Source of the DNA: an uncultured Planctomycetales bacterium
GTDB lineage: Bacteria > Omnitrophota > Gorgyraeia > Gygaellales > Profunditerraquicolaceae
Direction of reading: 5' to 3'
DNA: 64,000 bases
NCBI GenBank assembly: GCA_964545575.1
Contig: CAZJFL010000001.1
Span: 294,178-358,177, forward strand
Part shown: piece by piece, positions 42,629-64,000 of the stretch
Numbering within the stretch: position 1 is the first letter of the stretch
Layout: every line of letters starts with the position of its first letter
Program-made: the position numbers and the translations under genes
The notes under the pieces: model-generated
Database searches by the model: none
What the model saw: the letters and a program-made list of their open reading frames with translations, nothing else
Told to the model about the DNA's origin: nothing

Positions 42629-42650
42629 GGCTTATCTTATTTACACGCAA

Positions 42651-42679
42651 AGTATAATATATAGAAGGTGGCTTGTCAA
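42651..42679 (-). promoter_or_regulatory. Sigma70-like promoter for the giant-gene operon. The -35 TTGACA is at 42674-42679, followed by a 17-nt spacer and a -10 TATACT at 42651-42656.
   Basis: I read the reverse complement base by base. The TSS would fall near 42643, about 15 nt before the aptamer. Confidence 0.5.
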
Positions 42680-42754
42680 GCATATTTTTATAGTTAAAAG
42701 GGAGCGTTTTCTTATCGCTGATCCGGGGTGTTTTATGCCTGCTAAAACCACTTA

Positions 42755-43691: not shown

Positions 43692-44576
43692 TTAAAATCC
43701 TTGTCCTTTTAAACCAAAACCGCCCTGCATAAATTGGATAAGGATAGGGCCGCCGACAATAATTGCCACTACCGGCATGATGAAGAAGATAAGGGGAAAG
43801 AGCATCTTAATCGGGGCTTGTAAAGCCAGGCGTTCACCTCTCTGGAACCTTTGACGGCGGGTTTCTTCGCCTAAGGCATTCAACACATCATAAACCGGAG
43901 TGCCCATACGGTCCGCAGAGACTAAGGTATTCACTAGAGAAAAAACCTCCGTAATATTTAAACGCCTGCTCATCGCCTTTAATGCCTCCTGCCGTGACTT
44001 GCCTACTTTAATTTCCTGAGTAACCATACTTAATTCCTTAATTAGGGGGCTGGGCTTTGAACGCTGGAGCACCCAATCTAGGCCTTGCATAAAATCTAGC
44101 CCTCCGCCGACGCAGAGAGTAAGCAAGTCGATCACATCAGGCAATACCTTTATAATAATCCGGTTACGCTTCTGAATACGTATCTTTAGATAAATATCCG
44201 GCAATAAAAATCCGATGCCAAAAATAATCAAACCCCACAAAGGCTCAAACCTTTTCAGCGTCAAATATACCCCTAAAAATAAACCCAGCATTAATAATTC
44301 TTTTATCCCTAAGTAATCTTCGGGCAGCAAATTTATCTCGGCGGATGACAATTTATCCATTACTGCCTGCCGTCTTAGCTTAGATAAAATAATCCGGTTA
44401 AGGGGAAAAAGCGGGCGGGTAAAAAATAAAGGGACCTTTATGAATTCATCCTTGGGGGATAATTTCGGGGCTTGCGGCTTCAGCTCGGGAGACAACTGCA
44501 TAGGCCGGCGCAAGACAAAAAAGAGCGAAATACTTAAGATCCCGCTAAATAGCAATACGTAGATTAAAACCGGCAT
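43692..44576 (-). CDS. tadC: TadC-like (T2SS-F / GspF domain) pilus inner-membrane protein. The likely start is ATG 44576 (MPVLIYVLL...), overlapping the tadB stop as TAATG with a GGAGGTG RBS.
   Basis: T2SSF-type block LPDVIDLLTLCVGGGLDFMQGLDWV...VSADRMGTPVYDVLNALGEE with flanking TM helices. The ORF track extends it to 44639. Confidence 0.8.
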   Translation of the reverse strand: MPVLIYVLLFSGILSISLFFVLRRPMQLSPELKPQAPKLSPKDEFIKVPLFFTRPLFPLNRIILSKLRRQAVMDKLSSAEINLLPEDYLGIKELLMLGLFLGVYLTLKRFEPLWGLIIFGIGFLLPDIYLKIRIQKRNRIIIKVLPDVIDLLTLCVGGGLDFMQGLDWVLQRSKPSPLIKELSMVTQEIKVGKSRQEALKAMSRRLNITEVFSLVNTLVSADRMGTPVYDVLNALGEETRRQRFQRGERLALQAPIKMLFPLIFFIMPVVAIIVGGPILIQFMQGGFGLKGQGF

Positions 44577-45424
44577 TACACCTCCACGCGGCTTAAACGA
44601 TTTAACATTACCGCTCCGATTACCTCCGAAACCACGCACCAGACCAAAAGAATCCTGCCCACTTCTGATTCTAACATCACATCAAAGAATTGCTTATTGG
44701 TGCTGATCACAAAAAAGGCAAAGATAATAGGCAAGACCGACATAATCATCCCCTGCCACCTCGCCTGCGTAGTCAGGGTTTTAATCTGATCATTGATTCT
44801 TTTTCTGATCCGGATATTCTCGCTTAAATGGGTAAAGATATCGGTCAGGTTTCCGCCGGTTTCCCGCGCTACCAGAATAGCGGTGCTCATTAAATTCAGG
44901 TCTTCAGAGCCCATCTTTTTATTCAGGCGCTCAAAAGAAGTCTCCAGGGGAACTCCCATTTTATTCTCTTTGACCATCAGCGCAAACTCCTGGGAGATGG
45001 GCGCAGGCATGTCTTCGGTTAAGACTTCCATTGCCTGGAGCAAGGATAGGCCGGCTTTTAAAGACTGGCTCAGGTTCACCAAGGCATCGCTTAGCTGGGC
45101 GCCAAACTTAGCCCTGCGGACTTTTTCCATCTGCCGGATGACCAGCATCGGCAGGATAAAACCGATCACAGCCCCGGCAAAAATCAAAATTATATTCTGG
45201 AATAAAAGGAAGGAGGCGACTGCGAAGACGATCGGGCTTACGGAAAAGTAGAGGGCGAGCTTCTTCTGCTCTACCCAGACATACATCTCTTCTAATTTCC
45301 CGGCGGCCCGCTTGGCTTCCTCTTTATGCGCGCGGCCATAGCGCGCAAGAAAGAAAGGCGCCAGCACATAAAAAAGCGAGGCCACTGCCCCGAAGCTAAA
45401 GAGAAAAATCAAAAATTTTAGCAC
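44576..45424 (-). CDS. tadB: TadB-like (T2SS-F domain) pilus inner-membrane protein
   Basis: QLSDALVNLSQSLKAGLSLLQAMEVL...LVARETGGNLTDIFTHLSENIRIRKRINDQIKTLTTQARWQGMIMSVLPI is typical of the TadB/GspF family. Confidence 0.8.
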   Translation of the reverse strand: MLKFLIFLFSFGAVASLFYVLAPFFLARYGRAHKEEAKRAAGKLEEMYVWVEQKKLALYFSVSPIVFAVASFLLFQNIILIFAGAVIGFILPMLVIRQMEKVRRAKFGAQLSDALVNLSQSLKAGLSLLQAMEVLTEDMPAPISQEFALMVKENKMGVPLETSFERLNKKMGSEDLNLMSTAILVARETGGNLTDIFTHLSENIRIRKRINDQIKTLTTQARWQGMIMSVLPIIFAFFVISTNKQFFDVMLESEVGRILLVWCVVSEVIGAVMLNRLSRVEV

Positions 45425-45451
45425 TGCCGGATAATTCTCCTAATTTTTCTG

Positions 45452-45631
45452 TTAGGGATGCGTTGTATAGGGATCGAATTGCCTACCGTGGCCAAAGGTA
45501 TCTCCCACTTCCCGCATCTTGCCTGAAATAGCCCGCTTCAGGTATATCGCCATCCCAATTAATGCTACCACAATTATGAGGATTAGGAAAGCGTATTCTA
45601 TTGAAATAAACGCCTTCTTGGCATTTTTCAT
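45452..45631 (-). CDS. flp: Flp-family pilin paralogue (59 aa, not in the ORF track). Its ATG at 45631 overlaps the upstream stop as ATGA.
   Basis: Translation MKNAKKAFISIEYAFLILIIVVALIGMAIYLKRAISGKMREVGDTFGHGRQFDPYTTHP. It shares the xxIEY + hydrophobic helix + YLKR..G motif with the tandem flp array. Confidence 0.65.
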   Translation of the reverse strand: MKNAKKAFISIEYAFLILIIVVALIGMAIYLKRAISGKMREVGDTFGHGRQFDPYTTHP

Positions 45632-46095
45632 TTTATCTCCACCACCTCTAAACCCACCAGTTTTCTCTTCTCGCCTTTAGCCAGGGTAAAGAGCATTCTT
45701 CTTTTGCCCGGGCGGTAGTCTGCGGCGATAACCACCCTCTCTCTTGTTTGGCTAAATATTCTCCAGTCAGCGAGGGCGTTCGGCTTCCCGCCGGTATAGG
45801 CAAACCCTAAGCTTACCCCCCTGATAAAGACCTCTTTATAATTACGCCGCTCTGCCTCATTAGGCGCCTTAGCGAAACCCGCTCCCACGTCAACTCCCAC
45901 GGCAATCAGCTTATTCCAATCGATAAATTCCCCTACCGAAGCCTTCCCTTCAATCATCCCCTTAAAGATTACGTCACGGCAGAACTCCACATCCTGTTTT
46001 TCTTTGTTCGTGAAAAACATAATCCCGGCAGCCAGGATACTGATAATAAAAACGTAGATAAGCAACCTGTAATCCTTATCCATCTTGATCACCAT
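45628..46095 (-). CDS. Hypothetical membrane-anchored protein (155 aa) inside the tad operon
   Basis: It is an ORF-track ORF with an N-terminal TM (LLIYVFIISILAAGIMFF) and no family recognised. It is tightly packed between the TadG-like gene and flp. Confidence 0.5.
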   Translation of the reverse strand: MVIKMDKDYRLLIYVFIISILAAGIMFFTNKEKQDVEFCRDVIFKGMIEGKASVGEFIDWNKLIAVGVDVGAGFAKAPNEAERRNYKEVFIRGVSLGFAYTGGKPNALADWRIFSQTRERVVIAADYRPGKRRMLFTLAKGEKRKLVGLEVVEIK

Positions 46096-48596
46096 TGGCT
46101 TGTTTTTTCTTTAATTTTCACAAACGGCCTATAACTTGCTCCTTGGTATAATCCATACTCTACCTTTGTCTTACGGGTAACCCTAAGCCACTCACCATCC
46201 ACATGATAATTCGCCCAGGGGTTCCACACCCCCAGCAAGCCCGCTGACTTGCGCGCCTCATCCATCCGCGTCACCTTCACCCAGTGGTCATTGCCTGAGC
46301 CGCTATAATGGTCAAGATAAAAACAAATTTCTTTGACATAATTATTAAAACTATCTTTTTCTGACATCTCCATACGCGCAAAATCAAAGTAGGCCGGCAT
46401 CTCTACGCTTACGGAGTGCTTGCCGCGGGAATCAGTCCAATTATAATAAGCCGGGGAAAAGTAGTAATACCGGCCATAAACAGGATGCGGGGGATCAAAG
46501 CTCAACCCTTGCTCTAATTGATCTAACCAATTTCTTATCCCATAGTCGCCCCCTGGATATTCACCCGGACCGTAGAGCGTATAGAGATATTGATTGAAAG
46601 CAGTAAATAAGGGGACATATTGCTCTACAATAAATTGCTTTTCAATCGTTGCCTTGATATCCTTTGAATAAAGACCACCGCCGGGGGGATACGGAACAGC
46701 AACGACCTCGTAGCTATGACCATTCCAGCTATAATTCTTGCAGGGGACAGGATTGGGCGGCAATATAAAGCCAGTAGTGGGATCGACAACGCAGGCAGTA
46801 AGACTCTCCATTTTGCTCTGTATCTTATTCCTAAGAGCTTCTAAGCCCGGAAACGGATTCGCCCACCCGGGCGGAGTCCCGTAAAATACTACTTCGGGTA
46901 GCGGCTTATCATCCTTATAAGGAGCTTGGGAAAACTGGTCAAACCAGAACCGCCAGTCAGAAATTACCGTGTAAAAAGAGTTCTGCGTCCCTTCATCTAT
47001 TAACTCTTCCAGCGATTCATCCAGTTGCTGCAAGTTGTACCATATCAGGTCCATTGTATCCACGGGCGTCTGCCCCAACTGTGCCGGCCGGCTCCCTGAA
47101 AAAAGCTTTTTTTCCTCATCGGTGTTCCATAACCCTATATCCATCAGGCGGCGCAGGAAAAAAATAACCGGACTATCCTGCCACAGGTTACCCTTAATAC
47201 AACAAAGGTTTTCCTTATTGTTCTGCCTACAAAAAATGCCCGGGGCCCTCGGAGGCGATTCGAGTTCGACGTTGGAAATCAAACCCTTGAGAAACGCTTT
47301 AAACTCTGGTAAATTACGCTGCTTTGGAACGGGGTCACGATAAATATACCCTTTGAGAAAATCTTTTATCTTATCGACTTTTATTTTCTGCATATTAAGC
47401 CGATCCAGCCACCAATAAGCAAACATAGGCGTGGATTCTGTGTAATTGCCGTCTCCGTCAACATCGCAGGGGTCGCGGCCCACTTCAAACTGCGGGTCGA
47501 TAGACCCATCATGATTGCAGTCATATTCGAATGTGCTGTTTGTCATCTGCGGGTCGTCAACAATATTACTTAATACCTGCAGGGCTATTCCTTCTTTTAT
47601 CTGATCGGGCTGAGGCAGGCCTCTTAATGCCCGGGCAAAAGAGCTAAAGGCAGCGGCGAGGTTCTTTAAGCCCTTCTGTCCTATCTCTACTGATTGTCTA
47701 AAGGATAGGTATTGCGCGCCTCCGGTAAGTAGTATGGCAGCTACCAATGCTTCCGGCACCAAAATCGATGCTACTCCTGGCATAGTAATCGTTACCTGGG
47801 TCAAGCCTGTGATAACAGGAGCGAACAGGTCTGATGCCGCCGGAATCATTGAAGCCTTAGCGCCGGCTGCCGTAGCTTCGGCGGCCTTAGTCAAGGCTTC
47901 AGAAAAACCAACAACGCTTGTGCTAACTTGCGGTGGGGCAGCAGCAACGCCTACGCCGGTAAAGACGCACGCTCCCCCGACAGCTAAACCCATTGCTAGC
48001 CCTATAGCCATACCGCTTAGCGCGCTGTTCCAAGTTGACGCGCCCCCCCATCTAAATCTATCTCCCGCAGCAGTCACCCGCGACTGCAACCCTCCTCCTA
48101 TATAACCACCTATCCCCCCTCCTAATAAGCCTGCTCCAGCAAGCACAGCTACTAACACAGGCGCTGCCAAGCCGCCAGTTAAAATTACGATAACCAGGGT
48201 CGCTAATATTACTATGGCGGCTACGATAAACCCCAAAATAACATCCAATATACCATTAGATTTGCATATTTTGGGAGGCGAAGTTTCCGTTCCTTCTATA
48301 TAAGTACCTCCCGGAAGCGGCTGCCTCATTATATTGCGAAAATGCGCTGCCCGCGAAAGCAGCTGTGAGCCAAGGGAAAGCGCAGCCGCGTCGGCAACGG
48401 TAGAGACCTTGGTGGCGGTCAAAGCGACTTCCCCGATATTTACAAAGACCATAATCAATATCAGGACGACCACAAGGATCAGGAGAATAAAAGTGGCTAT
48501 CTGGCCGGCGCAGTCCCCGCACCTGAGATTTCTCAATGAGGTTGTCTTGCTTAATTTATTTATCATCGCCCTATTTTCCTTTAGGCCAATTCTCAA
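46089..48596 (-). CDS. TadG-like pilus-associated protein (835 aa) with a Gly-rich TM region and a large extracellular C-terminal domain
   Basis: The N-terminus ...FILLILVVVLILIMVFVNIGEVALTATKVSTVADAAALSLGSQL matches the TadG/Tad N-terminal domain (hydrophobic segment plus the aDaAALAga motif). Confidence 0.65.
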   Translation of the reverse strand: MRIGLKENRAMINKLSKTTSLRNLRCGDCAGQIATFILLILVVVLILIMVFVNIGEVALTATKVSTVADAAALSLGSQLLSRAAHFRNIMRQPLPGGTYIEGTETSPPKICKSNGILDVILGFIVAAIVILATLVIVILTGGLAAPVLVAVLAGAGLLGGGIGGYIGGGLQSRVTAAGDRFRWGGASTWNSALSGMAIGLAMGLAVGGACVFTGVGVAAAPPQVSTSVVGFSEALTKAAEATAAGAKASMIPAASDLFAPVITGLTQVTITMPGVASILVPEALVAAILLTGGAQYLSFRQSVEIGQKGLKNLAAAFSSFARALRGLPQPDQIKEGIALQVLSNIVDDPQMTNSTFEYDCNHDGSIDPQFEVGRDPCDVDGDGNYTESTPMFAYWWLDRLNMQKIKVDKIKDFLKGYIYRDPVPKQRNLPEFKAFLKGLISNVELESPPRAPGIFCRQNNKENLCCIKGNLWQDSPVIFFLRRLMDIGLWNTDEEKKLFSGSRPAQLGQTPVDTMDLIWYNLQQLDESLEELIDEGTQNSFYTVISDWRFWFDQFSQAPYKDDKPLPEVVFYGTPPGWANPFPGLEALRNKIQSKMESLTACVVDPTTGFILPPNPVPCKNYSWNGHSYEVVAVPYPPGGGLYSKDIKATIEKQFIVEQYVPLFTAFNQYLYTLYGPGEYPGGDYGIRNWLDQLEQGLSFDPPHPVYGRYYYFSPAYYNWTDSRGKHSVSVEMPAYFDFARMEMSEKDSFNNYVKEICFYLDHYSGSGNDHWVKVTRMDEARKSAGLLGVWNPWANYHVDGEWLRVTRKTKVEYGLYQGASYRPFVKIKEKTSQW

Positions 48597-48999
48597 ATAT
48601 ATTCAGCTTCGGATAATCCTGCTCATTCTGTTCATCGACTATCCCCGGCGTAGAGTCAGGAGGCGTAACATAGCGCCATGCCTTGCAAATGTAAGGGCGG
48701 TTACAAGGATCTGGCGGTTGTATTTCCCTTCCGTTTAGGACGTCTAAACACTTAGTGCACACGAGCTTGGGTGTGGACACCTCTACGCTTCCTGCGGCAA
48801 CAGCTGTAGCTTCATAATCCACTTGTCGCTGAACCATCCGGCTGCTCAGCCAGACAAATATCCTTGCTGTAGCTACCAGCAAAAGCAGCATAAGAAAAAT
48901 ACTAATACTCAGCTCCAAGGTAACCTGCGCCTTTCTCTGGCTCCTGCGGCCGGCTACGGCGGTAGAAAATAATAAACTCTTCTTCGCCCTAACACACAT
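48571..48999 (-). CDS. TadE-like pseudopilin (142 aa)
   Basis: The N-terminus RRSQRKAQVTLELSISIFLMLLLLVATARI is a TadE-like N-terminal segment. Confidence 0.65.
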   Translation of the reverse strand: MCVRAKKSLLFSTAVAGRRSQRKAQVTLELSISIFLMLLLLVATARIFVWLSSRMVQRQVDYEATAVAAGSVEVSTPKLVCTKCLDVLNGREIQPPDPCNRPYICKAWRYVTPPDSTPGIVDEQNEQDYPKLNIFENWPKGK

Positions 49000-49024
49000 C
49001 TGCTTTTTAGTTCTCCTGCGCTAA

Positions 49025-50467
49025 TTACTTCCTCGTCTTATTGGACCAATCCATATCTATGGTCCGGTTACTGTAAAGCCAGTCTATGCTCGACGTAGGC
49101 CTATCTGGACGCAGCAGATACCCTCCGTCGCTCACTTGATTAAGGTAGTGGATCTGCCTCACTGTGGCCTGGTTCAGATAAACGCTGTCCCTGGTTTGAA
49201 TCTGCTGCAGGAGCTCTCTTTTGCTTAAAGTCTCGGTTTTATTAGTTGTGGTAAGCAAATCCGGGCTTAAGCCCATTGCTTTAGCTTTATATGTGTGGCG
49301 GAAGATTTCCTCTATCACCGGAAAATCAAAGGTGTCATAGCGGACTGTGCCTTCATGGTACCTCACGTAGTCTCCGCAATACCAGGCGCCGCCATAATGA
49401 TCATTATAGTATTGCTCCCGTTGCTCGTTAGGGCGGTTAGTGCTCTCAATACATATTTCATCGCAACGCGTCAAATTCTCCGCCTCCGTTTGTCCTAACA
49501 TTCTAGCCTTGTTGCACTCATCGAAACAGAACTGCCTATCCACGATCATCCGGCACTGCGCGGTCAGGGAATCCTTATCTATAATCTCTGCGGCTGTAGT
49601 ATCGAGTATATATATGGGAAAGGTGTAGTCAAGACACCGCCAACCCCAAGGACCACGGAGACAGCTTCCCGGAGGATAATTTCTGGCCTCCTCAAAAGAT
49701 GTTAAAGTGCAATTGTCGCCTCCAATACTTATACCTACCAACTCCTTCCAGCATTCCGCACAGACACCATTCTGCCTTGGGCCTTTACACCAATAATAGT
49801 TATTAGCGGAAGGATTAGCCCCTAAGTCCATCATAGCATATCCGGTATACGGCTGAAAAAAATTACATTCTGCATTGCCTTGTGGAGCTGGCTCCCACCC
49901 GATATTCCTGCAATCACTACATTTGCGGTAATTTCTGTTCGCCAGGTCCGGCTCCAGATCGTCCCACCAGACATTGCTTGCTCCGTATATCTCCTCGTAT
50001 TTTTCGTACTGGCGCTCGTTGACATCGCGCTCCGTCCTGAAGGCCTGAGTCTTAAAGGATTGGGTAGAATAGCCGGCCGGGCTGCCCGGCTGATATTTAC
50101 CGTCGGAGACGTGGATATCCATCCGGTTTAATTCCAGCGCGTTTTCCGGATTCTCGTATAACCGGTGCGAACGTATCGGGCTGGTTGCTGAACTGGCAAC
50201 CGGGAAAATCTGCCCGATTCCTGTAGGGCTGGAAGGGTCAGGTACGTGTATATCTTTAATCATTATACTGGAAACGCTGGAGGGCTTATTGTCTTGTGCC
50301 GAATATTCCGCATCATAAAGCGCCTGCCTGAAAACCCGCCAGCTGACTTGATGCTGAAAATTATACCTTAAGCCATAATTTATCAAAACACCCAGAAGCA
50401 TGATTAAAAGCGAGCCGAAAATTGCCAGCTCCAATAATGACTGGGCTTTATTATTTACCTTATTCAT
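49025..50467 (-). CDS. TadE/TadF-like pseudopilin with a large Cys-rich C-terminal domain of about 17 Cys (480 aa)
   Basis: The N-terminus MNKVNNKAQSLLELAIFGSLLIMLLGVLINYG is a prepilin-like leader plus hydrophobic helix. The C-terminal 380 aa are rich in C, W, Y, N and G. Confidence 0.6.
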   Translation of the reverse strand: MNKVNNKAQSLLELAIFGSLLIMLLGVLINYGLRYNFQHQVSWRVFRQALYDAEYSAQDNKPSSVSSIMIKDIHVPDPSSPTGIGQIFPVASSATSPIRSHRLYENPENALELNRMDIHVSDGKYQPGSPAGYSTQSFKTQAFRTERDVNERQYEKYEEIYGASNVWWDDLEPDLANRNYRKCSDCRNIGWEPAPQGNAECNFFQPYTGYAMMDLGANPSANNYYWCKGPRQNGVCAECWKELVGISIGGDNCTLTSFEEARNYPPGSCLRGPWGWRCLDYTFPIYILDTTAAEIIDKDSLTAQCRMIVDRQFCFDECNKARMLGQTEAENLTRCDEICIESTNRPNEQREQYYNDHYGGAWYCGDYVRYHEGTVRYDTFDFPVIEEIFRHTYKAKAMGLSPDLLTTTNKTETLSKRELLQQIQTRDSVYLNQATVRQIHYLNQVSDGGYLLRPDRPTSSIDWLYSNRTIDMDWSNKTRK

Positions 50468-50855
50468 CGAAAAGTGATGACCCCAATTTTCTCACGTTTT
50501 CATTGCCGCTGGTATTGGTCCATCCTTTATTAAGTATGCTGTTTGTTTCGGTAGCAAATACATCTGTATCGTCAAAATCTCCATCGTCATTAAAGTCAAT
50601 TTGCGTGCCGTGCGCTTCATTATATGCCTTCTCGCTCCAAGTTATTACCGTATCTGTCGTGTTGCTATAGGAATAAACTACAGATGAGCCGGTAGTCTTT
50701 TTCGGGGCATACTGCTCACCCAATTCATCGGCCAGCTGCCTGAACCTGCCCTGCATGCCGCGCTTAAGATAGACTGCCATTGCTATTAAAGCAGCTACGA
50801 TGCAGGTAATTAACACCGCCACTTCTAAGGTTGTTTGAGCCTTATTCTTTTTCAC
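50460..50855 (-). CDS. flp: Flp-family pilin paralogue 10 (131 aa)
   Basis: MKKNKAQTTLEVAVLITCIVAALIAMAVYLKRGMQGRFR... Confidence 0.65.
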   Translation of the reverse strand: MKKNKAQTTLEVAVLITCIVAALIAMAVYLKRGMQGRFRQLADELGEQYAPKKTTGSSVVYSYSNTTDTVITWSEKAYNEAHGTQIDFNDDGDFDDTDVFATETNSILNKGWTNTSGNENVRKLGSSLFDE

Positions 50856-51198
50856 TCCACATCCCCTGAGAAAGAATTCCCTCTTTTTTAAACCGCTCGT
50901 CTCTTTCAGTCGTTACCCTTCCTTCTAAGTCTTTATTTATCTTTTTATAAGGAACCTGGTGTTCATCCACCGTAGTACTTATATTTGAATAACCTTTCAT
51001 TTTCCAGAGAAGGTCGTAATCAACTTCTACTAAGCCCTTTTTCTGGTCGCCGATAGCGTCGGCGGCCACCTGCACTACTCCCTGCACGCCGCGCTTCATA
51101 TAGGTCTGCATCCCTATGAGCGCGGCAGTAACAACCGCAATAAGCAAAACATACTCGGACAGACTCTGAGCTCTGCTATTTCTTCTTAGTTTTACCAT
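50842..51198 (-). CDS. flp: Flp-family pilin paralogue 9 (118 aa)
   Basis: ...SRAQSLSEYVLLIAVVTAALIGMQTYMKRGVQGVVQ... Confidence 0.7.
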   Translation of the reverse strand: MVKLRRNSRAQSLSEYVLLIAVVTAALIGMQTYMKRGVQGVVQVAADAIGDQKKGLVEVDYDLLWKMKGYSNISTTVDEHQVPYKKINKDLEGRVTTERDERFKKEGILSQGMWSEKE

Positions 51199-51246
51199 TT
51201 TTGCGCTATTTTGTCTATACCTATATCGCTTAGTTGCCTTGTGACC

Positions 51247-51582
51247 CTACGGTTTAATCCCGCTCAGCGGCTTCCAACTTGCAACATCTTCTGCGCTCTT
51301 TTCTTTTGTTTCACCGCCCGACTGTAAGGTAGACGTAGTTACTCGATTCTGGATTGTCTGCACGCTGGTTGTATCTTTCGTTGTCTCAAAGTCTACCTGA
51401 TTAGAGGTTGCGTTAGCCTCAAATTGCGCTCCGATATCGTCAGTGGACTGGCGCAGTTTTCCCTGCACGCCGCGTTTCATATAAATTTGTATGGCGAATA
51501 ATGCCGCTACCACCACAGCGACAATTATGGCATATTCCAAGGTGCTTTGGCCTTTTTTGTGCATACACATCGCTATACTCAC
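51247..51582 (-). CDS. flp: Flp-family pilin paralogue 8 (111 aa; the likely start is the internal MHKKGQ...)
   Basis: ...MHKKGQSTLEYAIIVAVVVAALFAIQIYMKRGVQGKLRQ... Confidence 0.7.
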   Translation of the reverse strand: MSIAMCMHKKGQSTLEYAIIVAVVVAALFAIQIYMKRGVQGKLRQSTDDIGAQFEANATSNQVDFETTKDTTSVQTIQNRVTTSTLQSGGETKEKSAEDVASWKPLSGIKP

Positions 51583-51600
51583 CTCCTTATTGGCTTATGG

Positions 51601-51915
51601 CTACTGTTGTACCGGTACCTTTACTGTTTGGGCCCCGCTACGCTCTGTCCTCCTATCAAGAGACTGACGGCTGACCGCGCCACCTAATTTGGTCTCATCC
51701 GTCTCGGTGTAGCCTTTTTCAGTATTGGTATAACTAGATTCGAGATAATACGGTTCATACTGGCCCGTGACATTAGCGGCTTTATCTACGGCGTATCTTA
51801 TACCGCCCTGCATACTTCTCTTTAAATACACCTGCATGGCCATAGCCGCCCCAACAACCAAAGCAATCACAATAGCATACTCGGCAGTGCTTTGGGCCCT
51901 TTTATGTCTTAACAT
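51601..51915 (-). CDS. flp: Flp-family pilin paralogue 7 (104 aa)
   Basis: MLRHKRAQSTAEYAIVIALVVGAAMAMQVYLKRSMQGGIR... Confidence 0.7.
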   Translation of the reverse strand: MLRHKRAQSTAEYAIVIALVVGAAMAMQVYLKRSMQGGIRYAVDKAANVTGQYEPYYLESSYTNTEKGYTETDETKLGGAVSRQSLDRRTERSGAQTVKVPVQQ

Positions 51916-51936
51916 TATTGTTCACCTCCTTAGTTA

Positions 51937-52323
51937 TTATTCGTATAGCTTTTCGTCCTTTAAATCCGTATTCACCTTTTCGGCGTCGTTTCCTAAGGCG
52001 CTTCTTTTTACGTCAGCCGGAGTTACTACGTCATATCTAGATGTGCCCACTCCTAGCTCCTGTGTGCCAAATCGTTCCGTTGTAACCTGATCGCCTGTCT
52101 GTGTAGTGGTATATTTGGAAGTCATACGGCCGGCGGAATACTGTTCGCCGATTTTATCTGTGGATTCACGCAGTTTTCCCTGCACGCCGCGGCGCATATA
52201 TATCTGTATGGTCAATAAAGTTCCCACTACTACTGCAATAATCACCGCATATTCCAGAGTGCTTTGTCCCAGCTTATTTTTAGGCATCACTTTATCACCT
52301 CCCTTAATCCCTGCTAAAAACAC
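51937..52323 (-). CDS. flp: Flp-family pilin paralogue 6 (128 aa; the likely start is the internal MPKNKLGQ...)
   Basis: ...MPKNKLGQSTLEYAVIIAVVVGTLLTIQIYMRRGVQGKLRE... Confidence 0.7.
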   Translation of the reverse strand: MFLAGIKGGDKVMPKNKLGQSTLEYAVIIAVVVGTLLTIQIYMRRGVQGKLRESTDKIGEQYSAGRMTSKYTTTQTGDQVTTERFGTQELGVGTSRYDVVTPADVKRSALGNDAEKVNTDLKDEKLYE

Positions 52324-52356
52324 TATCTTAACCGCTCACAAACCTTTGCTTAAGAT

Positions 52357-52767
52357 TTAAGGCGGATTCTGATTTCCCGGCTCACCAAAGCGATATTCCT
52401 GATAATCATCTTTTGCCTGCCTAGTCGTCTGATCAGTAGTACGTGCTACTTTACCTCCCTTGTCCATCTTTGAAGTATCCTTCGAACCGGCTACGGTTGT
52501 CGAAGTTGACACAGCGCTCAGCCCCTCAGGTTCGTACTGATTACTTAGCTCCACGCCCTGCTTAGCGCCAATATCATTCCAATAGTCCTGATGATCTTCA
52601 AGTGCTTTCACAGACTGATCACTTGCATCCTTATATCTACCCTGTATGCCTCTTTTAACATAAGTCTGCATCCCGACTACTGCTGCTATTACTAAGCCGA
52701 TGAGAATCGCGTATTCAGCGGTGCTCTGGGCCTTTTTATTCCTGAATAACCTTAGCATTTTTTTCAC
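52357..52767 (-). CDS. flp: Flp-family pilin paralogue 5 (136 aa)
   Basis: ...NKKAQSTAEYAILIGLVIAAVVGMQTYVKRGIQGRYK... Confidence 0.7.
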   Translation of the reverse strand: MKKMLRLFRNKKAQSTAEYAILIGLVIAAVVGMQTYVKRGIQGRYKDASDQSVKALEDHQDYWNDIGAKQGVELSNQYEPEGLSAVSTSTTVAGSKDTSKMDKGGKVARTTDQTTRQAKDDYQEYRFGEPGNQNPP

Positions 52768-53580: not shown

Positions 53581-53745
53581 ATCCTCCAATAAAAAAACCG
53601 TTTTACCAAAATATTTTCGGCTTTCGGTAACCCGGCTTAAAGTCCTCGCTTCCGACCCTAAAGCAGTTTGCATCCAAATTGTTGACGAGCACCGCCGTGG
53701 CTTTTCTCTCCACTTAACCTCCTTAAGTGGATCATCCGTTGCCGT
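53581..53745 (-). promoter_or_regulatory. Candidate c-di-GMP-I (GEMM)-like riboswitch C in the leader of the flp/tad operon. The aptamer is about 53608-53745. The terminator alternative is about 53581-53626.
   Basis: The transcript reads CGGCAACGGAUGAU-CCACUUAA GGAGG UUAAGUGG-AGAGAAAAGCCACGG-(long P2)-GGACUUUAAGCCGGGUUACCGAAAGCC. It shares AAAGCCACGG and GCCGGGUUACCGAA with riboswitch A and with the GEMM 3' consensus GCGGGGUUACCGA. CCGGGUUACC can alternatively pair with GGUAAAACGG, which is followed by UUUUUUU (a terminator). The match is weaker than for A and B, with a pentaloop in place of the GNRA loop. Confidence 0.4.
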
Positions 53746-57709: not shown

Positions 57710-57738
57710 TTGACAAGTTGCACAAGGAATGATATACT
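57710..57738 (+). promoter_or_regulatory. Sigma70-like promoter. The -35 TTGACA is at 57710-57715, followed by a 17-nt spacer and a -10 TATACT at 57733-57738.
   Basis: I read it base by base. Both hexamers are near consensus. Confidence 0.55.
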
Positions 57739-57779
57739 TTATATGTAAAGAATATAGTTCTTTCAGAATAAAGGGAAGA

Positions 57780-57926
57780 CGATAAAGGTAAACTATCCGA
57801 AAGGATGGGGCGCAAAGCTATAGAGCCTAATCTCCGCGTAAGCGCGGGGCATGGCAGTCAGTTGCCGAAATCAAGATACGAAATGCTATAAGCCCATTCT
57901 AATAGGATAGAGTGGGCTTTTTTATT
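57780..57926 (+). promoter_or_regulatory. c-di-GMP-I (GEMM)-like riboswitch B with an intrinsic terminator, upstream of the RHH and adhesin genes
   Basis: AAAGGUAAAC-UAUCC GAAA GGAUG-GGGCGCAAAGC-UAUAGAGCCUAAUCUCCGCGUAAGCGCGG-GGCAUGGCAGUCAGUUGCCGAAAUC, compared with Vc2 CAGGGCAAAC-CAUUC GAAA GAGUG-GGACGCAAAGCC-...-GGUAGGUAGCGGGGUUACCGAUGG. The GNRA tetraloop hairpin, the GCGCAAAGC block, the GCC-UAA block and the 3' receptor-like region are all in the right order. Confidence 0.6.
57891..57926 (+). terminator. Rho-independent terminator (11-bp stem agcccattcta/tagagtgggct with one G-U pair, a 6-nt loop, then TTTTTTATT)
   Basis: Direct reading. It lies between the aptamer and the RBS AGGAG of the next gene, consistent with being the riboswitch expression platform. 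Confidence 0.7.
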
Positions 57927-57938
57927 AGGAGAAATAAA

Positions 57939-58202
57939 ATGACTAAATTAAGGACAGTCACTTTTTTGACGCGGGAGCAAATTGATTTTCTGGATAAATT
58001 AGGAAAGGACGCATTGTTTTATAAAGGCTCAAAGCTTTCGCGCGCGCATATCCTTGCCGAGCTGGTCGATTTATTAATGGAGCTAGGAATCGACGTGAAG
58101 CAGATAGACTTAGCCCATGGTCACTTAGCAGGCGAAATATTAAAGGCAATGAACAACGGGCATAATGGGCAGGAGAAAAATGAAGAAACACATTTTCACT
58201 AA
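57939..58202 (+). CDS. Small putative ribbon-helix-helix-like DNA-binding protein (87 aa from ATG 57939; the ORF track starts at 57912)
   Basis: An RBS AGGAG lies 8 nt upstream. The N-terminus reads KLRTVTFLTREQIDFLDKL...SRAHILAELVDLLMELG, a beta-strand followed by two helices as in RHH/CopG-like proteins. The assignment is tentative. Confidence 0.45.
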   Translation: MTKLRTVTFLTREQIDFLDKLGKDALFYKGSKLSRAHILAELVDLLMELGIDVKQIDLAHGHLAGEILKAMNNGHNGQEKNEETHFH

Positions 58203-61200
58203 AATCGGCTTGATTATTTTAAGCGCGGGTTTATTACTGGCGACGGCGGGAAGCCCTAGCTTTGCCTTGCCTACAGACCCCACCGTAGCCGCAGGGACAG
58301 CCACCTTTTCTAATCCTGACCCGAATACCTTAGCCATTAATGCTTCCAACCAGGCGATCATCAACTACGGCTCATTCAGTATCGGCAGCGGCGAGTCGGT
58401 AATCGTGCGCCTGCCTTCAGTGGATAGCTCTATTTTAAACCGCGTCTTAGGCAACCTCCCCAGCGATATCTTAGGTAATTTAAGCTGTAACGGCTTATTT
58501 ATTCTGGTAAACGCAAACGGCATCTTTATCGGGCCGAATGCCAATATAGATGTGGGAAGTTTGATTGCTTCCACCCGCGATATCACCAATTCTGATTTCT
58601 TAAGTTCCAAATATGTCTTTGAAAAACTCTCTAAAGAGCAGCTGGATATGTTGCTACGCAACCAGGGGACTATTACCGTCAGGGACGGCGGCTTCGGCGT
58701 TTTAATTGCCGGCGCGATCGAGAACCAAGGCACGATCATTGCTAAAGTCGGGACTATCGCCCTGGCCAGTGGCGATAAGGTTACTTTAAATATGGCTGGT
58801 AACAGCCTTATTTCTGTGGCAATAGACAAAGAGGTGGCGGCAGGAGTCTATGATCAAGACGGTAAACCCATCCTTGACCAGATTAAAAATACAGGCAGAT
58901 TAGAGGCTGATGGCGGGGTAGTGATGCTAAAGGCAGAGAGTATATCCGGCATCTTTAGGTCCGCCATCAACCTGGAAGGTTATGTCAAAGCAACTAAAGT
59001 AGCCGAGCGTGACGGTAAAATCACCATCGTAACGCAGCGGGATGTAGTAATAGATGCGGCTCTGGAAGCCACGGAAATCGAAATCGGCAAAGCCGATGAG
59101 GCAGTGCCGGAGAATGTCTACTTAGCCGGATTCTTAGCGGCAGAAAAAGCCATCACCGTGCTGGCGCAAAATGATATCCAGACCTCTGCGGAAATCACCG
59201 CCCAAAGCGGCGATGTCAGATTATTTGCCGATTATGACGGTAACGGCGCGGGAGAGTTTACCCAAAGCGCCGGGGTGATTGAAGCCAAAGGTAATGGTAA
59301 TGTCTATATTGACGGCTCAGAAACCATGACCTTGGGCGAGATCAGGACAGAAGAGGGAGCAATCAAGATCGGCACAGAGAGAACTCCTTCAGCTATTGCC
59401 GGCGAACCCAAATATGTCCACACTGCTGGAGATATTAAAATTACCGAAAAGGAAACTACCAATAATGTAGTCACTATGGAAACCGATAGAGGCGATGTTT
59501 TAAAATATAATCCTTCAGGCAAACTTACTCTTGAAGCAACAGCTGGCTTAATCCAAGACTTGACTCTTACTCCTCTGGCAGCGGATTATTTAAAATTAAT
59601 TGCTAATGGCTTTATGGTTAATTCCTCAGCTCTCACCACTGAGCTCTACAAGAATACCGGGGACCTGGTAATCAGAAGCTCTACACCCCAGGACTCCAGC
59701 GTGGCCTTAGAAGGTGAAGGGATCAATGTCACTTACCTGAAAGACAGTGCCTTGACCCTAAGGTCAGATAATGCAGTCAGGACCAGCCCGGGAGTGATCA
59801 TCCAAGCTAATCAGGTCAAGGTCATTGCCAATCAGTTCGGAACCCAAGAAGTTCCTTTAAATGTCCAGGCTAACCATACCTATTTTACTAGACTAAACGG
59901 CAGTATTGATATTATGGAGAGTTTAGGCTTAGGCTCAAGCATCATGCTGCGCGGCCCTCCGGACGGCTTTGGCTATATTATCTATTCTTATGCTACAAAC
60001 CTCTACTTAGATGCTCAAAGTGTAAACCTCTTAGGTACAAATCCTACCTATTTATACGGTAACATTAATTTTAATAACTTTAACTGCACCATACCGGGAA
60101 AAGAAATCTATTTTGAAGCCGGAAAAACCTATACCTTCCAAGGCAATACCCATATCGAAGGCAGTATTAAAAATATACCTATATACCTTTATTCCGGCCA
60201 AGCCGGCACTCCTTACTACACTAACTTTGAACAATCTATTACTTTAGCCTTACGCTACGTAAACTTACGCGATGCTTATAATTTAGGGGTGCCTATCACG
60301 CTGATACCGGGAAAGAACCAGGGAAATTGCGCCGGCTGGATCTTTGACCCGCTCTGGACCGGCTTAGCCGGAAGCGAAATTTGGTCTGATGCGGGAAACT
60401 GGTGGGGAGGAGATGTGCCGGAGGACGGCGAACCGGTGACCTTTGACGCTACTGCAACCGGCCTGGTCTCGCTGATGGATATTGCCGGCCTGAATCTTCT
60501 CTCTTTAACTATCGATGGCTATACCGGAACCATCACTCTGCAGGCCGACCTTGATGCCGGTGCCTACAGCCAAAATAACGGGACATTTAATACTACATTT
60601 GCTGCTCACAGCTATAGCTTAAATGTGAGCTCTTTTGACATGGCAACAGGAGGAGTCTTTAACGCCGGAGCCTCCACTATCACCTGCAGCGGAAACTGGT
60701 CTATCGGAGCGAGCACCTTTAACCATATGACCAGCACGGTAATTTTTAATAAGGATGTCGGCACGCAAACTTTGGATTGCGGCCCTGACGGAGGGATAGC
60801 GCCCACTTTTTATAAACTTACCCATTCAGGAACAGGCATCTTACAATTAATTAACAATCAAATGCAGCTGGAGAGCGATTTCCTGAATTCCGCAGGCACT
60901 TTTGACTCTAATAACCAAAATATGATCTTTGCCGGGAACTGGACGAATAGCGGCATTGCCACCTTTACCAGGGGAAGCGGGGCTTTAGCCTTTATCGAAA
61001 CCACAACACTTACCAATTCCTCCTCTAATGCCGAAGATCTAAAGGCAGTGGTTATTACCGGCGCAGTAACCTTAGGCTCAAACGTGACTATGACCTCAGT
61101 CAGCGGTGCTGGAACGCTCAATTTAGGAACCGGCGGCTACACGCTTACCCTTTCCGGAATCAACACGCCTTTAGCCGTAACTACTTTTAATAAGGGCAGC

Positions 61201-64000
61201 GGCGGCTCCACGGTTAACTATACCGGCTCAGGCGGCATTATCGGCGTGAGCGCGGTAGCCTATCATAATCTAAGTTTTACGCCGACTGTTGCCGCTACCT
61301 ATAATCTGCTCGGCGATCTGACCGGGGCAAATGCCCTAAGCGGAAGCCTGACTATCGGCGCAAATGCTACCTTAGATGTGCAGGATCCCCGCACTATGGT
61401 TGAAGTTTACAATATAGAGCTGGCCGGCGACTGGACTAATAACAATATATTTATCTGCAGGACCGGCACGGTGACATTTAACGGCATCGCCGCCAAGCAG
61501 AATTTTAACCCCGGAGCATCTGCTTTCAATGAGGTGATTATCTCCAATGCCCACGCTGACGGAGTGCAGCTGAACACCAATCCTTTGATCGCCTCCAACC
61601 TTAGCATAAGTCCGCTTAGCACCTTTGATATACAAAATCTGGACTTAAACTTATCCGGCGGCCTAAACATTCGCGGAACGCTAAGACTGATCGGAAACCA
61701 GGCAGTGACCTATTTCGCGCTAACCCCATGGGCTGGCAGCAGCGTGGACTATTACGGCAGCGAAAACTACACCAACCTGGCTGTAGGAGCAACCTATTAT
61801 AACCTTAAAATAAGCGGCGGCGGAACTTACGATATAATAGCAACCCTAGGCACGATCGCAGTCGGCGGAGACTTAACCATCTCAAGCGGGACACTGGACT
61901 TAGGGGGGAACAACTTGAGCATGAACCCCGCTGGCACGAGTAATTTTTATAATGACGGCACGTTAAGGTTGCATGGAGACGAAGTATTTACCCGTTTTGA
62001 TAACGATACCGATTCCGGCACCATAGTCTTTGACGGAAGCCTGGCCTATGCCGGGCCGTGGACCAGCACCACTAAAGGCGGAGCAATATTAACCGGCCTG
62101 ACCACCGGGCAGAATTATAACAAACTTACCTTTAACGGCACTGGCAGCTGGACGGCAAATAATACGCTGGATATAAACAGCGACTTTGCGATTACTCGGG
62201 GCACATTAAACACTAACTTTGATATGACTGTAGGGGGCAGCTGGACAGTTGCGCCGAGTCCGACTGCGGCCTTTACTTCCGGAGTTAATATCGTCGTTTT
62301 TGACGGCGCAGGTTTGCAGCTCTTAAGCTCAGGCGGAATAGATGCTGACCATGATTTCAATCAGCTTGCCTATGCCGGAACGGATACCTTAAGACTTATA
62401 GATTACGCTTTAGATGTGGATGGAAGATTATGTATTGGTACATCGCTAGGGACTTTCGATGCTAGGGCTCAGAGTGTAACTGCGGGCAGCCTATGGATGC
62501 TAGGTGGAATACTCCAAGCTCCCAATTCACCGGCTACGCTCATTGTAAACGGTGATTGCATTTTTGATAACGGCGGAGGCCACCCCACCCCCTACGCTAC
62601 TGGAGATATCACTTATACCGGAGGCTCAGGAGCAGTCAATATTACCGGGGATTTGGCTCTCTATAGGATAACAGACGGTTCGCTATTGCTGAATTTTACC
62701 GCAGGAAACGCGGCCGCAAGGGGCGTGGTGACAGTCAACGGCCAGTATATAAACGGCGGAAGACCTACTGTTGACTGGATCACCAACCAAGGCAAGCTTT
62801 ATATGCGGTCTGATATTGGCCAGACTCTGCCGAACAACGACTATTATCATTTGGAGCTCGATCATAACCTCGTAGGAGTTACTGCATACGGATTAAGCGG
62901 CACAAGCACTAATATAAATGGTAATTTAGATATAGACGCAGGCGCAGAACTAGATGTCAGCGCTACGCCGGGTTATGCGATTAACTTAAAGGGAAATTGG
63001 TATGATGACGGGATATTTATGGCAGGGGACAGCAGCGTCGTTACCTTAAACGGTGAAGGCGCGCAGACTATTGACGCTCATTTTGTCTATATTGCCCAGG
63101 AAATTACCCCTAAGGCATTCTACAATCTAATCATCGCTAATACAGGCGCTGGAGTGCAGTTAGTCAATACTGATTTTGGCGTACGCGGCACCTTCGAGCT
63201 GCAGCAGGGCTCTTTTGACGCTAATAGCCTGGATCAGTATTACCTCGGCGCAGATTTTACGTTAGATCCAGGCACCACCTACCTTAAAGGCGGCACCCTT
63301 TACTTTTTCGGCGACTTAAACTTTGCCGACCATACTGACCCCTTGCAGAATCTCGGCACCGTAGTAGTCGGCTCAAGCCCGGACACGGTAATCCTGACCA
63401 CCGATATGTCCGCCGACTCTTTGACCATTAACGATGGGGACGGCGTGGCCACCGATGGCTTTGATATCACCTTGACTGACTTCCTGACGATTATGCCTGA
63501 TGCCGGTTTAGGCGGCGGACTGCTTGATGCTACTACAAGCTTGGTGACCAGAAACTCCACGATTAGCTTAGGCGGGGATTGGACTAACTACGGCAACTTT
63601 ATTGCCGACGCAAGCACCGTAGTCTTAAATAGCGCAGGTGACCAAGCCATCAACGGCTCAACCACCTTCTATAACTTTACCGCCATAGGCGTACGTACCC
63701 TGACCTTCGAAGCCGGCTCGACCCAGACCATCACCAATATCACCATCCTACAAGGCGATGGAGCAGTTAGCCTGCTTTACTTAAGAAGCTCTGATCCAAG
63801 CGTAACCCAATGGATGATTGCTCCTGCCGAAGCAGGCAGAAGCATCAGCTATGTGGATGTGCAGGATTCTATAAATTTAATCCCCCCGACGATCAACCCA
63901 GCTGATTCCAATAATAGCGGGAATAATATCTTCTGGTTTGGAATATATGATATTTTAGGCAGGGTTTACCAAGACACGGGCGTAAACCCCATCGGGCCGA
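58180..64000 (+). CDS. Large secreted adhesin/exoprotein with a filamentous-haemagglutinin N-terminal (TPS) domain and a beta-helical repeat body. It has more than 1,940 aa and its 3' end is outside the window.
   Basis: An RBS AGGAG precedes ATG 58180. The signal peptide is MKKHIFTKIGLIILSAGLLLATAGSPSFA. The TPS block reads ...ILNRVLGNLPSDILGNLSCNGLFILVNANGIFIGPNANIDVGSLIASTRDITNSDF, with the hallmark NPNGI-type motif. It then has about 1,700 aa rich in G, T, N and S with repeated ...G.L.L.G / NxxxG motifs. There is no in-window stop, so it is absent from the ORF track, and only short antisense minus-strand ORFs are listed here. Confidence 0.85.
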   Translation, partial: MKKHIFTKIGLIILSAGLLLATAGSPSFALPTDPTVAAGTATFSNPDPNTLAINASNQAIINYGSFSIGSGESVIVRLPSVDSSILNRVLGNLPSDILGNLSCNGLFILVNANGIFIGPNANIDVGSLIASTRDITNSDFLSSKYVFEKLSKEQLDMLLRNQGTITVRDGGFGVLIAGAIENQGTIIAKVGTIALASGDKVTLNMAGNSLISVAIDKEVAAGVYDQDGKPILDQIKNTGRLEADGGVVMLKAESISGIFRSAINLEGYVKATKVAERDGKITIVTQRDVVIDAALEATEIEIGKADEAVPENVYLAGFLAAEKAITVLAQNDIQTSAEITAQSGDVRLFADYDGNGAGEFTQSAGVIEAKGNGNVYIDGSETMTLGEIRTEEGAIKIGTERTPSAIAGEPKYVHTAGDIKITEKETTNNVVTMETDRGDVLKYNPSGKLTLEATAGLIQDLTLTPLAADYLKLIANGFMVNSSALTTELYKNTGDLVIRSSTPQDSSVALEGEGINVTYLKDSALTLRSDNAVRTSPGVIIQANQVKVIANQFGTQEVPLNVQANHTYFTRLNGSIDIMESLGLGSSIMLRGPPDGFGYIIYSYATNLYLDAQSVNLLGTNPTYLYGNINFNNFNCTIPGKEIYFEAGKTYTFQGNTHIEGSIKNIPIYLYSGQAGTPYYTNFEQSITLALRYVNLRDAYNLGVPITLIPGKNQGNCAGWIFDPLWTGLAGSEIWSDAGNWWGGDVPEDGEPVTFDATATGLVSLMDIAGLNLLSLTIDGYTGTITLQADLDAGAYSQNNGTFNTTFAAHSYSLNVSSFDMATGGVFNAGASTITCSGNWSIGASTFNHMTSTVIFNKDVGTQTLDCGPDGGIAPTFYKLTHSGTGILQLINNQMQLESDFLNSAGTFDSNNQNMIFAGNWTNSGIATFTRGSGALAFIETTTLTNSSSNAEDLKAVVITGAVTLGSNVTMTSVSGAGTLNLGTGGYTLTLSGINTPLAVTTFNKGSGGSTVNYTGSGGIIGVSAVAYHNLSFTPTVAATYNLLGDLTGANALSGSLTIGANATLDVQDPRTMVEVYNIELAGDWTNNNIFICRTGTVTFNGIAAKQNFNPGASAFNEVIISNAHADGVQLNTNPLIASNLSISPLSTFDIQNLDLNLSGGLNIRGTLRLIGNQAVTYFALTPWAGSSVDYYGSENYTNLAVGATYYNLKISGGGTYDIIATLGTIAVGGDLTISSGTLDLGGNNLSMNPAGTSNFYNDGTLRLHGDEVFTRFDNDTDSGTIVFDGSLAYAGPWTSTTKGGAILTGLTTGQNYNKLTFNGTGSWTANNTLDINSDFAITRGTLNTNFDMTVGGSWTVAPSPTAAFTSGVNIVVFDGAGLQLLSSGGIDADHDFNQLAYAGTDTLRLIDYALDVDGRLCIGTSLGTFDARAQSVTAGSLWMLGGILQAPNSPATLIVNGDCIFDNGGGHPTPYATGDITYTGGSGAVNITGDLALYRITDGSLLLNFTAGNAAARGVVTVNGQYINGGRPTVDWITNQGKLYMRSDIGQTLPNNDYYHLELDHNLVGVTAYGLSGTSTNINGNLDIDAGAELDVSATPGYAINLKGNWYDDGIFMAGDSSVVTLNGEGAQTIDAHFVYIAQEITPKAFYNLIIANTGAGVQLVNTDFGVRGTFELQQGSFDANSLDQYYLGADFTLDPGTTYLKGGTLYFFGDLNFADHTDPLQNLGTVVVGSSPDTVILTTDMSADSLTINDGDGVATDGFDITLTDFLTIMPDAGLGGGLLDATTSLVTRNSTISLGGDWTNYGNFIADASTVVLNSAGDQAINGSTTFYNFTAIGVRTLTFEAGSTQTITNITILQGDGAVSLLYLRSSDPSVTQWMIAPAEAGRSISYVDVQDSINLIPPTINPADSNNSGNNIFWFGIYDILGRVYQDTGVNPIGP

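Follow-up and report, generated by a model that had tools for sequence, protein, structure and literature searches.

The 64-kb stretch of Omnitrophota DNA analysed here (contig CAZJFL010000001.1; hereafter the window, in whose coordinates positions are given) carries a match to the class I cyclic di-GMP (c-di-GMP) riboswitch aptamer, c-di-GMP-I or GEMM-I, at 57777-57869 on the + strand. It can be said with good confidence that this is a functional riboswitch in the 5' leader of an Omnitrophota operon of two genes, or more, of which the first encodes a protein of 87 amino acids (aa) and the second a giant exoprotein of the two-partner secretion (TPS) type. Taken alone, the riboswitch is nothing out of the ordinary in a well-known class. 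Of more interest is that aptamer, terminator and small gene form a conserved cassette, and more than 100 loci across the phylum carry the same combination of riboswitch and small gene.

Omnitrophota are uncultivated, very small and probably host-dependent bacteria, known for the largest predicted bacterial proteins. Searches of the literature for Omnitrophota together with riboswitch, and for c-di-GMP riboswitch together with ribbon-helix-helix (RHH), returned nothing relevant. Published work on the giant genes of the phylum notes PilZ and GGDEF genes near them, and the part of this literature that was examined is without mention of riboswitches or of c-di-GMP control of transcription. The window element adds a member to the c-di-GMP-I class from Omnitrophota, a phylum in which none is known to have been described, and what is new is the phylum-wide cassette of riboswitch, terminator and small gene, together with its placement ahead of giant-protein genes.

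The aptamer and its probable operon

Rfam cmscan of the 64-kb window returns two matches above the curated thresholds, at 57777-57869 (+) and 42540-42625 (-). The first of these, which a first-pass annotation of the DNA had taken for a GEMM riboswitch, aligns with RF01051 over model positions 1-87 of 87 and scores 70.0 bits, twice the gathering score of 35 (E 1.1e-11), so that the covariance model bears the claim out. The same element is recovered by a leave-one-out covariance model, R1 (48.8 bits, E 2e-11), which was built from five other sequences with the window aptamer excluded. As alignments of the aptamers with MAFFT misplaced P2 and the expanded variants, a hand-written structure was used for R1.

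In the Rfam alignment, helix P1a (GU/GC) is formed by 57788-89 with 57812-13, helix P1b (CUAUCC/GGAUGG) by 57793-98 with 57803-08, and the P2 stem by 57816-19 with 57860-63, all on the + strand. P1b is the GAAA-capped helix that had already been picked out in the annotation, with the tetraloop at 57799-57802. The tetraloop receptor in P2 consists of CCUAA (57826-30) and CAUGG (57850-54), and beyond this motif P2 is extended into a GC-rich tip. With the GNRA tetraloop on P1b and its receptor in P2 both present, the two would be expected to dock. The ligand-contact nucleotides are G57787, A57814 and C57865, which correspond to G20, A47 and C92 in the numbering of Vc2. The same P1a, P1b with GNRA tetraloop, P2 with receptor and G20/A47/C92 are found in Vc2 of V. 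cholerae, the prototype of RF01051. Judged by its sequence, the window element is a class I c-di-GMP riboswitch, as every defining feature of RF01051 that can be tested in this way is found in it.

Positions 20, 47 and 92 bear on ligand specificity, as seen in the Vc2 structure and in GEMM-Ib. Given that all three are canonical, the window aptamer would be expected to bind c-di-GMP and to sense it rather than cyclic GMP-AMP (cGAMP). That another cyclic dinucleotide is sensed, either 3'3'-cGAMP (GEMM-Ib) or the ligand of the GGC and UAU variants, is extremely unlikely. Relatives of RF01051 with altered specificity do exist, and the other aptamer of the window, at 42.5 kb, scores best with one of them, RF03167. 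However, position 20 of the 57.8-kb aptamer is G and not the A of the cGAMP class, its best model is RF01051 and not the c-di-GMP-I-GGC variant RF03167, and its position 47 is A and not the G of that variant. These identities, together with C92, hold in at least 95% of the family as well (G20 in 68 of 71 members, A47 in 67 of 67 and C92 in 68 of 70).

The aptamer follows a sigma-70-type promoter (57710..57738, + strand), found by consensus scan, with TTGACA at 57710-57715, a 17-nt spacer containing TG, and TATACT at 57733-57738. Eleven of the 12 consensus positions are matched, in line with the near-consensus promoter described before. The related loci L075 and L077 (L numbers denote loci of the family) share this promoter and its conserved spacer (AAGTTGCACAAG), and in the wider family 45 leaders have a promoter of the form cTTGAAA-N16/17-TGnTATACT. 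Past the aptamer, a terminator scan and RNAfold identify an intrinsic terminator, T1 (57890..57926, + strand), composed of a 12-pair stem, AAGCCCAUUCUA/UAGAGUGGGCUU, with a 6-nt loop and then the U-run UUUUUUAUU. The stem spans 57890-57919, ahead of TTTTTTATT, and its 10-pair core is worth -14.8 kcal/mol. T1 begins 21 nt past the end of the aptamer, with no overlap between the two, and ends 12 nt short of the ATG of the 87-aa gene. The ribosome-binding site (RBS), AGGAG at 57927..57931 on the + strand, lies 7 nt before this ATG, so the annotation was right to place a strong terminator just before the RBS. The order UUUUUUAUU-(A/G)GGAG recurs in many related leaders, and L074, L075, L077 and L078 all retain T1 itself, its pairs preserved by compensatory changes such as that from CCCAUUC/GAGUGGG to CCCGUUC/GAACGGG. 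An enclosing helix, P0 (UAUAGU/GCUAUA; 57753-57758 with 57885-57890, + strand), is predicted in the minimum free energy (MFE) structure of RNAfold. It would join the transcript start to the base of T1 and enclose the whole aptamer, and it has counterparts in L075 (UUACUA/UAGUAA, read from the alignment) and, in a weaker version, in L077.

The first gene after the riboswitch is the open reading frame (ORF) for the 87-aa protein (RTVTFLTREQIDFLDKLGKDALF..GSKLSRA.ILAELVDLL; 57939..58202, + strand, ATG at 57939). It is followed by a TpsA-type giant exoprotein gene (58180..64000, + strand), recognised as an ORF with a Pfam TPS match and still open at the window end. The two ORFs overlap by 23 nt, and the open frame of tpsA spans 58153 to 63999. 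The TPS domain (PF05860) scores 82.1 bits against a cut-off of 33.5 and covers aa 54-283 (nt 58339-59028), in agreement with the TPS-domain giant gene of the annotation, the size of which can be given only as a lower bound: at least 1,940 aa in the window and at least 2,415 aa on the identical metagenome contig L001. The TpsA N-terminus, MKKHIFTKIGLIILSAGLLLATAGSPSFA, reads by inspection as a signal peptide, and NRV and NANGI motifs, as is typical of TpsA exoproteins, are present. In its signal peptide, its TPS domain with both motifs and its very long passenger, the protein resembles the exoproteins of the two-partner systems FHA/FhaC and ShlA/ShlB. Among the window proteins scanned there is no match to ShlB/FhaC or Omp85 (TpsB), tpsA running off the window end. 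A consensus scan found no + strand promoter-like site within the small gene, and this, with the overlap, makes co-transcription and translational coupling of the two genes the simplest reading; the small gene and tpsA would share one transcript.

Mode and direction of switching

In about 55 of 66 leaders of the family, a U-run hairpin stands 2-26 nt past the aptamer. This near-universal hairpin points to transcription termination as the common design of the family, and termination control is the most likely mode for the window operon. Post-transcriptional action, on translation or on RNA stability or processing, with the U-run hairpin serving as a 5' stabiliser or as a separate attenuator, is improbable. 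Such action has been reported for the class I riboswitches of V. cholerae, which do not use termination, Vc2 itself included (PMC6366702). The window hairpin also abuts the RBS, and many related leaders have a second U-run hairpin directly before theirs. On the other hand, the RBS is unsequestered in all predicted structures, and a U-run hairpin right after the aptamer is the feature that nearly all of the family shares.

Under termination control, transcription would start at the TTGACA-17-TATACT promoter and the nascent leader would fold into the GEMM-I aptamer, the fate of the transcript being decided at T1 (57890-57926). In the ligand-free state, the P1b region would pair with the 5' arm and loop of T1 to form a transient antiterminator, allowing polymerase to read through. 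With c-di-GMP bound, the aptamer would be locked, T1 would form, and the operon would be shut down. The read-through transcript would encode an RHH-like protein and, translationally coupled to it through the 23-nt overlap, the giant TPS exoprotein, to be exported by a TpsB outer-membrane partner. That c-di-GMP turns expression OFF in this manner is put at slightly better than even; the lean to OFF comes from the lack of overlap between T1 and aptamer and from the alternative pairings available to them.

The candidate antiterminator (57893..57910, + strand; RNAfold) has two parts. In one, CCCAUUCU of the T1 5' arm (57893-57900) pairs with AGGAUGGG of the P1b 3' strand (57802-57809); in the other, GGAUAG of the T1 loop pairs with CUAUCC, the P1b 5' strand (57793-57798). 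For transcripts that end at 57910-57912, RNAfold prefers the antiterminator by about 3 kcal/mol (-41.8 versus about -38.8, and -37.8 versus -34.4, in two runs). Further indications come from the wider family, in which the first terminator stem is almost invariant (CCCUAAAG/CUUUAGGG), T1 of the window subgroup being different and stronger. Perfect complements of at least 7 nt to the 5' ligand-binding core of the aptamer (UAAAGGCAAAC) occur in the loop and 3' arm of terminator one or two in 32 of 58 leaders, the mean longest run being 6.8 nt as against 5.0 in shuffles. In 13 of 57 leaders the unconstrained MFE structure is one without the terminator, and energy gaps of only 0-5 kcal/mol are frequent. 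In combination, the core complements and the small energy gaps are the signature of an OFF switch in which the free core acts as antiterminator and the terminator can form once ligand has locked the core.

In C. difficile, too, the class I riboswitches, Cd1 (Cdi-1-3) among them, combine an aptamer with a downstream intrinsic terminator within a long 5' leader, and their mechanism is the one favoured for the window. All seven functional class I switches of that species are of the termination type and OFF (PMC6366702). The cargo is different, however, as Cd1 controls a flagellar operon, whereas the window cargo is an adhesin-like exoprotein, the kind of gene that C. difficile turns ON by means of class II riboswitches.

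Several observations weigh against an OFF switch of this build in the window operon. The pairing of the T1 5' arm with the P1b 3' strand is found in L074, L075 and L078 and is absent from L077, and GGAUAG:CUAUCC, considered as a conserved antiterminator, was rejected, as it is confined to the window and L075. T1 beats any T1-less structure by 11-17 kcal/mol in the window and its four closest relatives, and an antiterminator could therefore act only kinetically. Pairing between the terminator 5' arm and the aptamer is marginal over all leaders (3.2 nt versus 2.3 nt in shuffles), and the window subgroup is without the 'anti-core' complement of the wider family. The proposed co-transcription of the small gene and tpsA would follow solely from their overlap and from the absence of an internal promoter-like site. 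Finally, adhesins are as a rule induced at high c-di-GMP levels, and one is turned ON by the class I riboswitch Bc2, an analogy that would suggest the opposite polarity here.

The same parts could indeed work as an ON switch, in which T1 forms by default and c-di-GMP prevents it from forming, thereby inducing the RHH-like protein and the adhesin. This reading is possible, if rather doubtful. The dominance of T1, by 12.6 kcal/mol in the window and 11-17 kcal/mol in relatives, gives the leader a default-off appearance, and c-di-GMP generally promotes adhesion. Bc2 of B. thuringiensis, upstream of cap, the gene of a collagen adhesion protein, is a class I ON switch acting by transcription read-through (PMC6366702). 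Like the window element as proposed here, it has a large surface adhesin under its direct control; unlike it, Bc2 has no intervening regulator gene. Cargo in related loci includes MshE-type ATPases with c-di-GMP-binding MshEN domains, which an ON switch would have coherently induced and activated by one signal.

Against an ON switch stands the architecture of the leader. The terminator and the aptamer do not overlap and are separated by the 21-nt gap, and no helix confined to the bound state was found that would capture either terminator arm, P0 ending at the base of T1. The overlapping design that would be expected of an ON switch is seen in the 42.5-kb riboswitch and is absent at 57.8 kb. 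Nothing in the sequence offers a bound aptamer the means to hold a terminator arm, and an ON mechanism at the window site would thus lack structural support. Since T1 does not overlap the aptamer, the polarity is probably opposite to that of Bc2; the polarity of riboswitches is, in any case, not to be extrapolated between species (PMC6366702).

A phylum-wide cassette

A genome scan for homologues of the small gene, with one genome per species, yielded 67 loci, nearly all titled Omnitrophota, of which one has no upstream DNA and was left out. Model R1 places an aptamer 50-320 nt before the small-gene core, and on its strand, in 61 of the 66 evaluable loci. The other five (L007, L008 (/L079), L009, L051 and L064) are truly without an aptamer, as determined in a search with filters off. 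The Rfam gathering threshold is passed in 7 of the first 13 loci. A metagenome scan added 80 more loci, with an aptamer in nearly all of those that have enough upstream sequence. In the closest relatives, L074-L078, the order of aptamer, terminator, small gene and TpsA is kept.

The fold of the aptamer was followed in an alignment of the 71 Omnitrophota matches that the first search gave, the two window aptamers and a few weak ones among them. In this alignment, which is fitted to the model, 97.4% of cells are paired and double changes occur at all 19 modelled pairs; slid controls reach 31-45%, and none of 500 shuffles reaches the observed value. The aptamer is present in more than 90% of loci and all of its helices show compensatory changes, a pattern indicative of purifying selection on the fold. 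It is accordingly very unlikely that the window aptamer is a relic, with expression depending on the promoter together with a leaky, constitutive terminator, or on the small protein. Support for a relic might be drawn from C. difficile, in which only 11 of 16 c-di-GMP riboswitches respond to ligand (PMC6366702), from the window terminator, which looks constitutive thermodynamically, and from the five homologous loci without an aptamer. Set against this are a full-length model match at twice the threshold, ligand contacts that are all intact, and the phylum-wide retention just described.

Some aptamers of the family are expanded (L014, L026, L043, L044 and L050; L011, L033, L074 and L078), with inserts in two places. 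Inserts of the first type are one or two extra hairpins, of 40-90 nt, between P1b and the 3' strand of P1a, and those of the second type are a hairpin, CCCCGUUAGA...UCUAACGGGG, in the 5' junction. Split cmsearch matches in L014, L043, L044 and L050 were considered as tandem aptamers, a reading that was dropped as folding gives single aptamers with inserted hairpins. The leader and promoter layout in the 100 nt upstream of the aptamers is strongly conserved in L010-L073, with an AT-rich palindrome, GTAAATTTATAAATTTAC, just upstream of the -35 hexamer, a TTGC motif opening the spacer, and TTGACAATTAGG immediately 5' of the aptamer. In the double terminators that many of the L010-L073 leaders carry, both 5' arms mimic consecutive parts of the aptamer 5' core (UAAAG and GGCAAA), so that the 3' arms can pair with the aptamer. 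With about 130 class I leaders carrying single or double terminators, the family forms a natural set for a study of expression-platform design.

The 87-aa protein has 51 database relatives, and all of those with a source name are from Candidatus Omnitrophota. The family core, R.VTFL.R.QIDFLDKLGKDALF..G.KLSR, contains 10 invariant residues. By these sequence comparisons, the protein defines a new, phylum-restricted small protein family, one whose expression would be tied to c-di-GMP. The first-pass annotation had called the gene an RHH gene; the small ORF at 57939-58202 stands, whereas the RHH label finds no support in Pfam, in PDB sequences or in hhalign. The window protein has no Pfam match at E <= 0.01, and RHH_5 is touched by only 1 of 38 family members (E 0.13). 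A profile search of PDB sequences with the small protein gave nothing relevant, and hhalign against CopG and Arc gave probabilities of at most 0.2. The RHH fold is an intertwined dimer, and for this reason RHH monomers are expected to model poorly. An RHH identity of the small protein is plausible but unproven, the evidence for the fold being weak.

Repeats seen around the -35 hexamer are candidate operators of the small protein, and the GTAAATTTATAAATTTAC palindrome, the TTGC motif and TTGACAATTAGG of L010-L073 are likewise candidates for this role. A toxin-antitoxin reading of the small gene was rejected, as no toxin family lies downstream in any class of locus. RHH regulators tied to c-di-GMP are known in AmrZ (Pseudomonas/Azotobacter) and CdbA (Myxococcus), with which the small protein has no detectable sequence relationship. 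In comparison with AmrZ and CdbA, the c-di-GMP input of the window system would sit at the RNA level, and binding of DNA and of c-di-GMP by the small protein is putative.

The riboswitch has the small gene as its constant partner, whereas the genes after the latter differ between loci. TpsA is the cargo in the window, in L001-L006 and L074-L078, and in L009, in which the aptamer is absent. L009 has the small gene followed by TpsA and, directly after tpsA, a convergent ShlB/FhaC-type Omp85 gene (5947-12203). As the small gene and TpsA are kept together there in the absence of an aptamer, their pairing is independent of the riboswitch. In 30 loci, including L012, L020, L024-L026, L030-L035 and L039, the small gene is directly followed by a gene of a secreted protein family that has no Pfam match; its members, of about 105 aa, show a signal peptide, a (V/I)SC(T/S)IPAIPGVNAP motif, a low-complexity middle and a C-terminal (T/V)IYSR.

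A third kind of cargo is a c-di-GMP/pilus operon, represented by L073 (6227-12144 of CP070837.1), in which Pfam identifies a HAMP-GAF-GGDEF cyclase, a PilT-like ATPase, an MshEN protein and two MshE-type ATPases. L014, L036, L041, L049, L062, L063, L067-L069 and L072 resemble L073 by their pattern of ORF sizes only. In the L073 arrangement, one c-di-GMP riboswitch would control both c-di-GMP synthesis and c-di-GMP-binding pilus motors, and the GGDEF operons found here are unusual. Other surface-protein cargo comprises LVIVD/PT-HINT, subtilase-dockerin and CARDB proteins.

Class I riboswitches precede 'environment, membrane, motility' genes (PMC6366702), as the window element does. The Omnitrophota system differs from Vc2 in its host, which is without a cultured or studied example, and in the small RHH-like gene that always stands between switch and cargo. 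No riboswitch-controlled TPS system with a small gene upstream of tpsA was found in the literature searched.

A second riboswitch and other features of the window

The first-pass annotation had listed three GEMM-like elements, of which those at 57.8 kb and 42.5 kb are upheld and the third is not. The 42.5-kb aptamer (42625-42540, - strand, within the region 42505-42700; Rfam cmscan) has its own TTGACA-17-TATACT promoter, and its best model is RF03167, the GGC variant, yet it has A at position 47. The 5' arm of its terminator (GCCGGGUUACCGAAUAC) overlaps the 3' half of the aptamer. As modelled, this would be a textbook ON-type design, the opposite of the 57.8-kb switch. The riboswitch is followed by ORFs of 393 aa and 163 aa and then by a giant ORF; an RHH-like domain was sought at the start of the 393-aa protein and none was found (hhalign probability 0.1). 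The giant ORF (2-40861, - strand) runs uninterrupted for at least 13,620 codons and off the window, and its first 2,000 aa contain a Peptidase_C39 match and a PG_binding_1 domain. Its product resembles the Omnitrophota giant proteins of West-Roberts et al.

Between the two riboswitch operons lies a block resembling Tad and type II secretion system (T2SS) loci (43692-52767, - strand). Its products include two T2SSF proteins, an 834-aa protein whose N-terminus is TadE/G-like, and several unannotated ones of 100-140 aa. A secretion locus upstream of giant genes has been reported in Omnitrophota, and the block agrees with it.

Within 64 kb, a c-di-GMP riboswitch heads each of two giant-protein operons. 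Together with the more than 100 cassette loci, these operons offer a handle, testable in vitro, on the signal that would control surface and attachment functions in Omnitrophota. A broader model can be put forward tentatively. The aptamer, terminator and RHH-like gene may form a portable, phylum-wide regulatory head placed before surface and secretion functions under c-di-GMP control, with the small protein as conserved first output and as a second-tier transcription factor binding the repeats at its own promoter. With the window TpsA operon of the OFF type and the operon for at least 13,620 aa of the ON type, c-di-GMP might then make the cell, probably a predatory or epibiotic nanobacterium, change from one giant surface protein to the other.

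The third GEMM-like element (53622-53722, - strand) scores 13.9 bits with R1 and has no Rfam c-di-GMP-I match at E <= 10 in a 451-nt search. Its likeness to the 42.5-kb aptamer is confined to the 3' half (AAAGC...GCCGGGUUACCGAAA), it is without P1a and P1b, and it may be an aptamer remnant.

A palindrome, GGGACAGTCCC, occurs 11 times in the window, including one near-match pair (42863/42884), where 0.43 would be expected by chance. It is always paired, at distances of 16-70 nt (40134/40174, 42755/42794, 53834/53873, 55942/55958 and 57595/57664), and may serve as an operator, a terminator or a repeat element. Both riboswitch promoters have such pairs upstream of them. L074, a close relative, and L014 also contain the palindrome, and most of the other loci do not.

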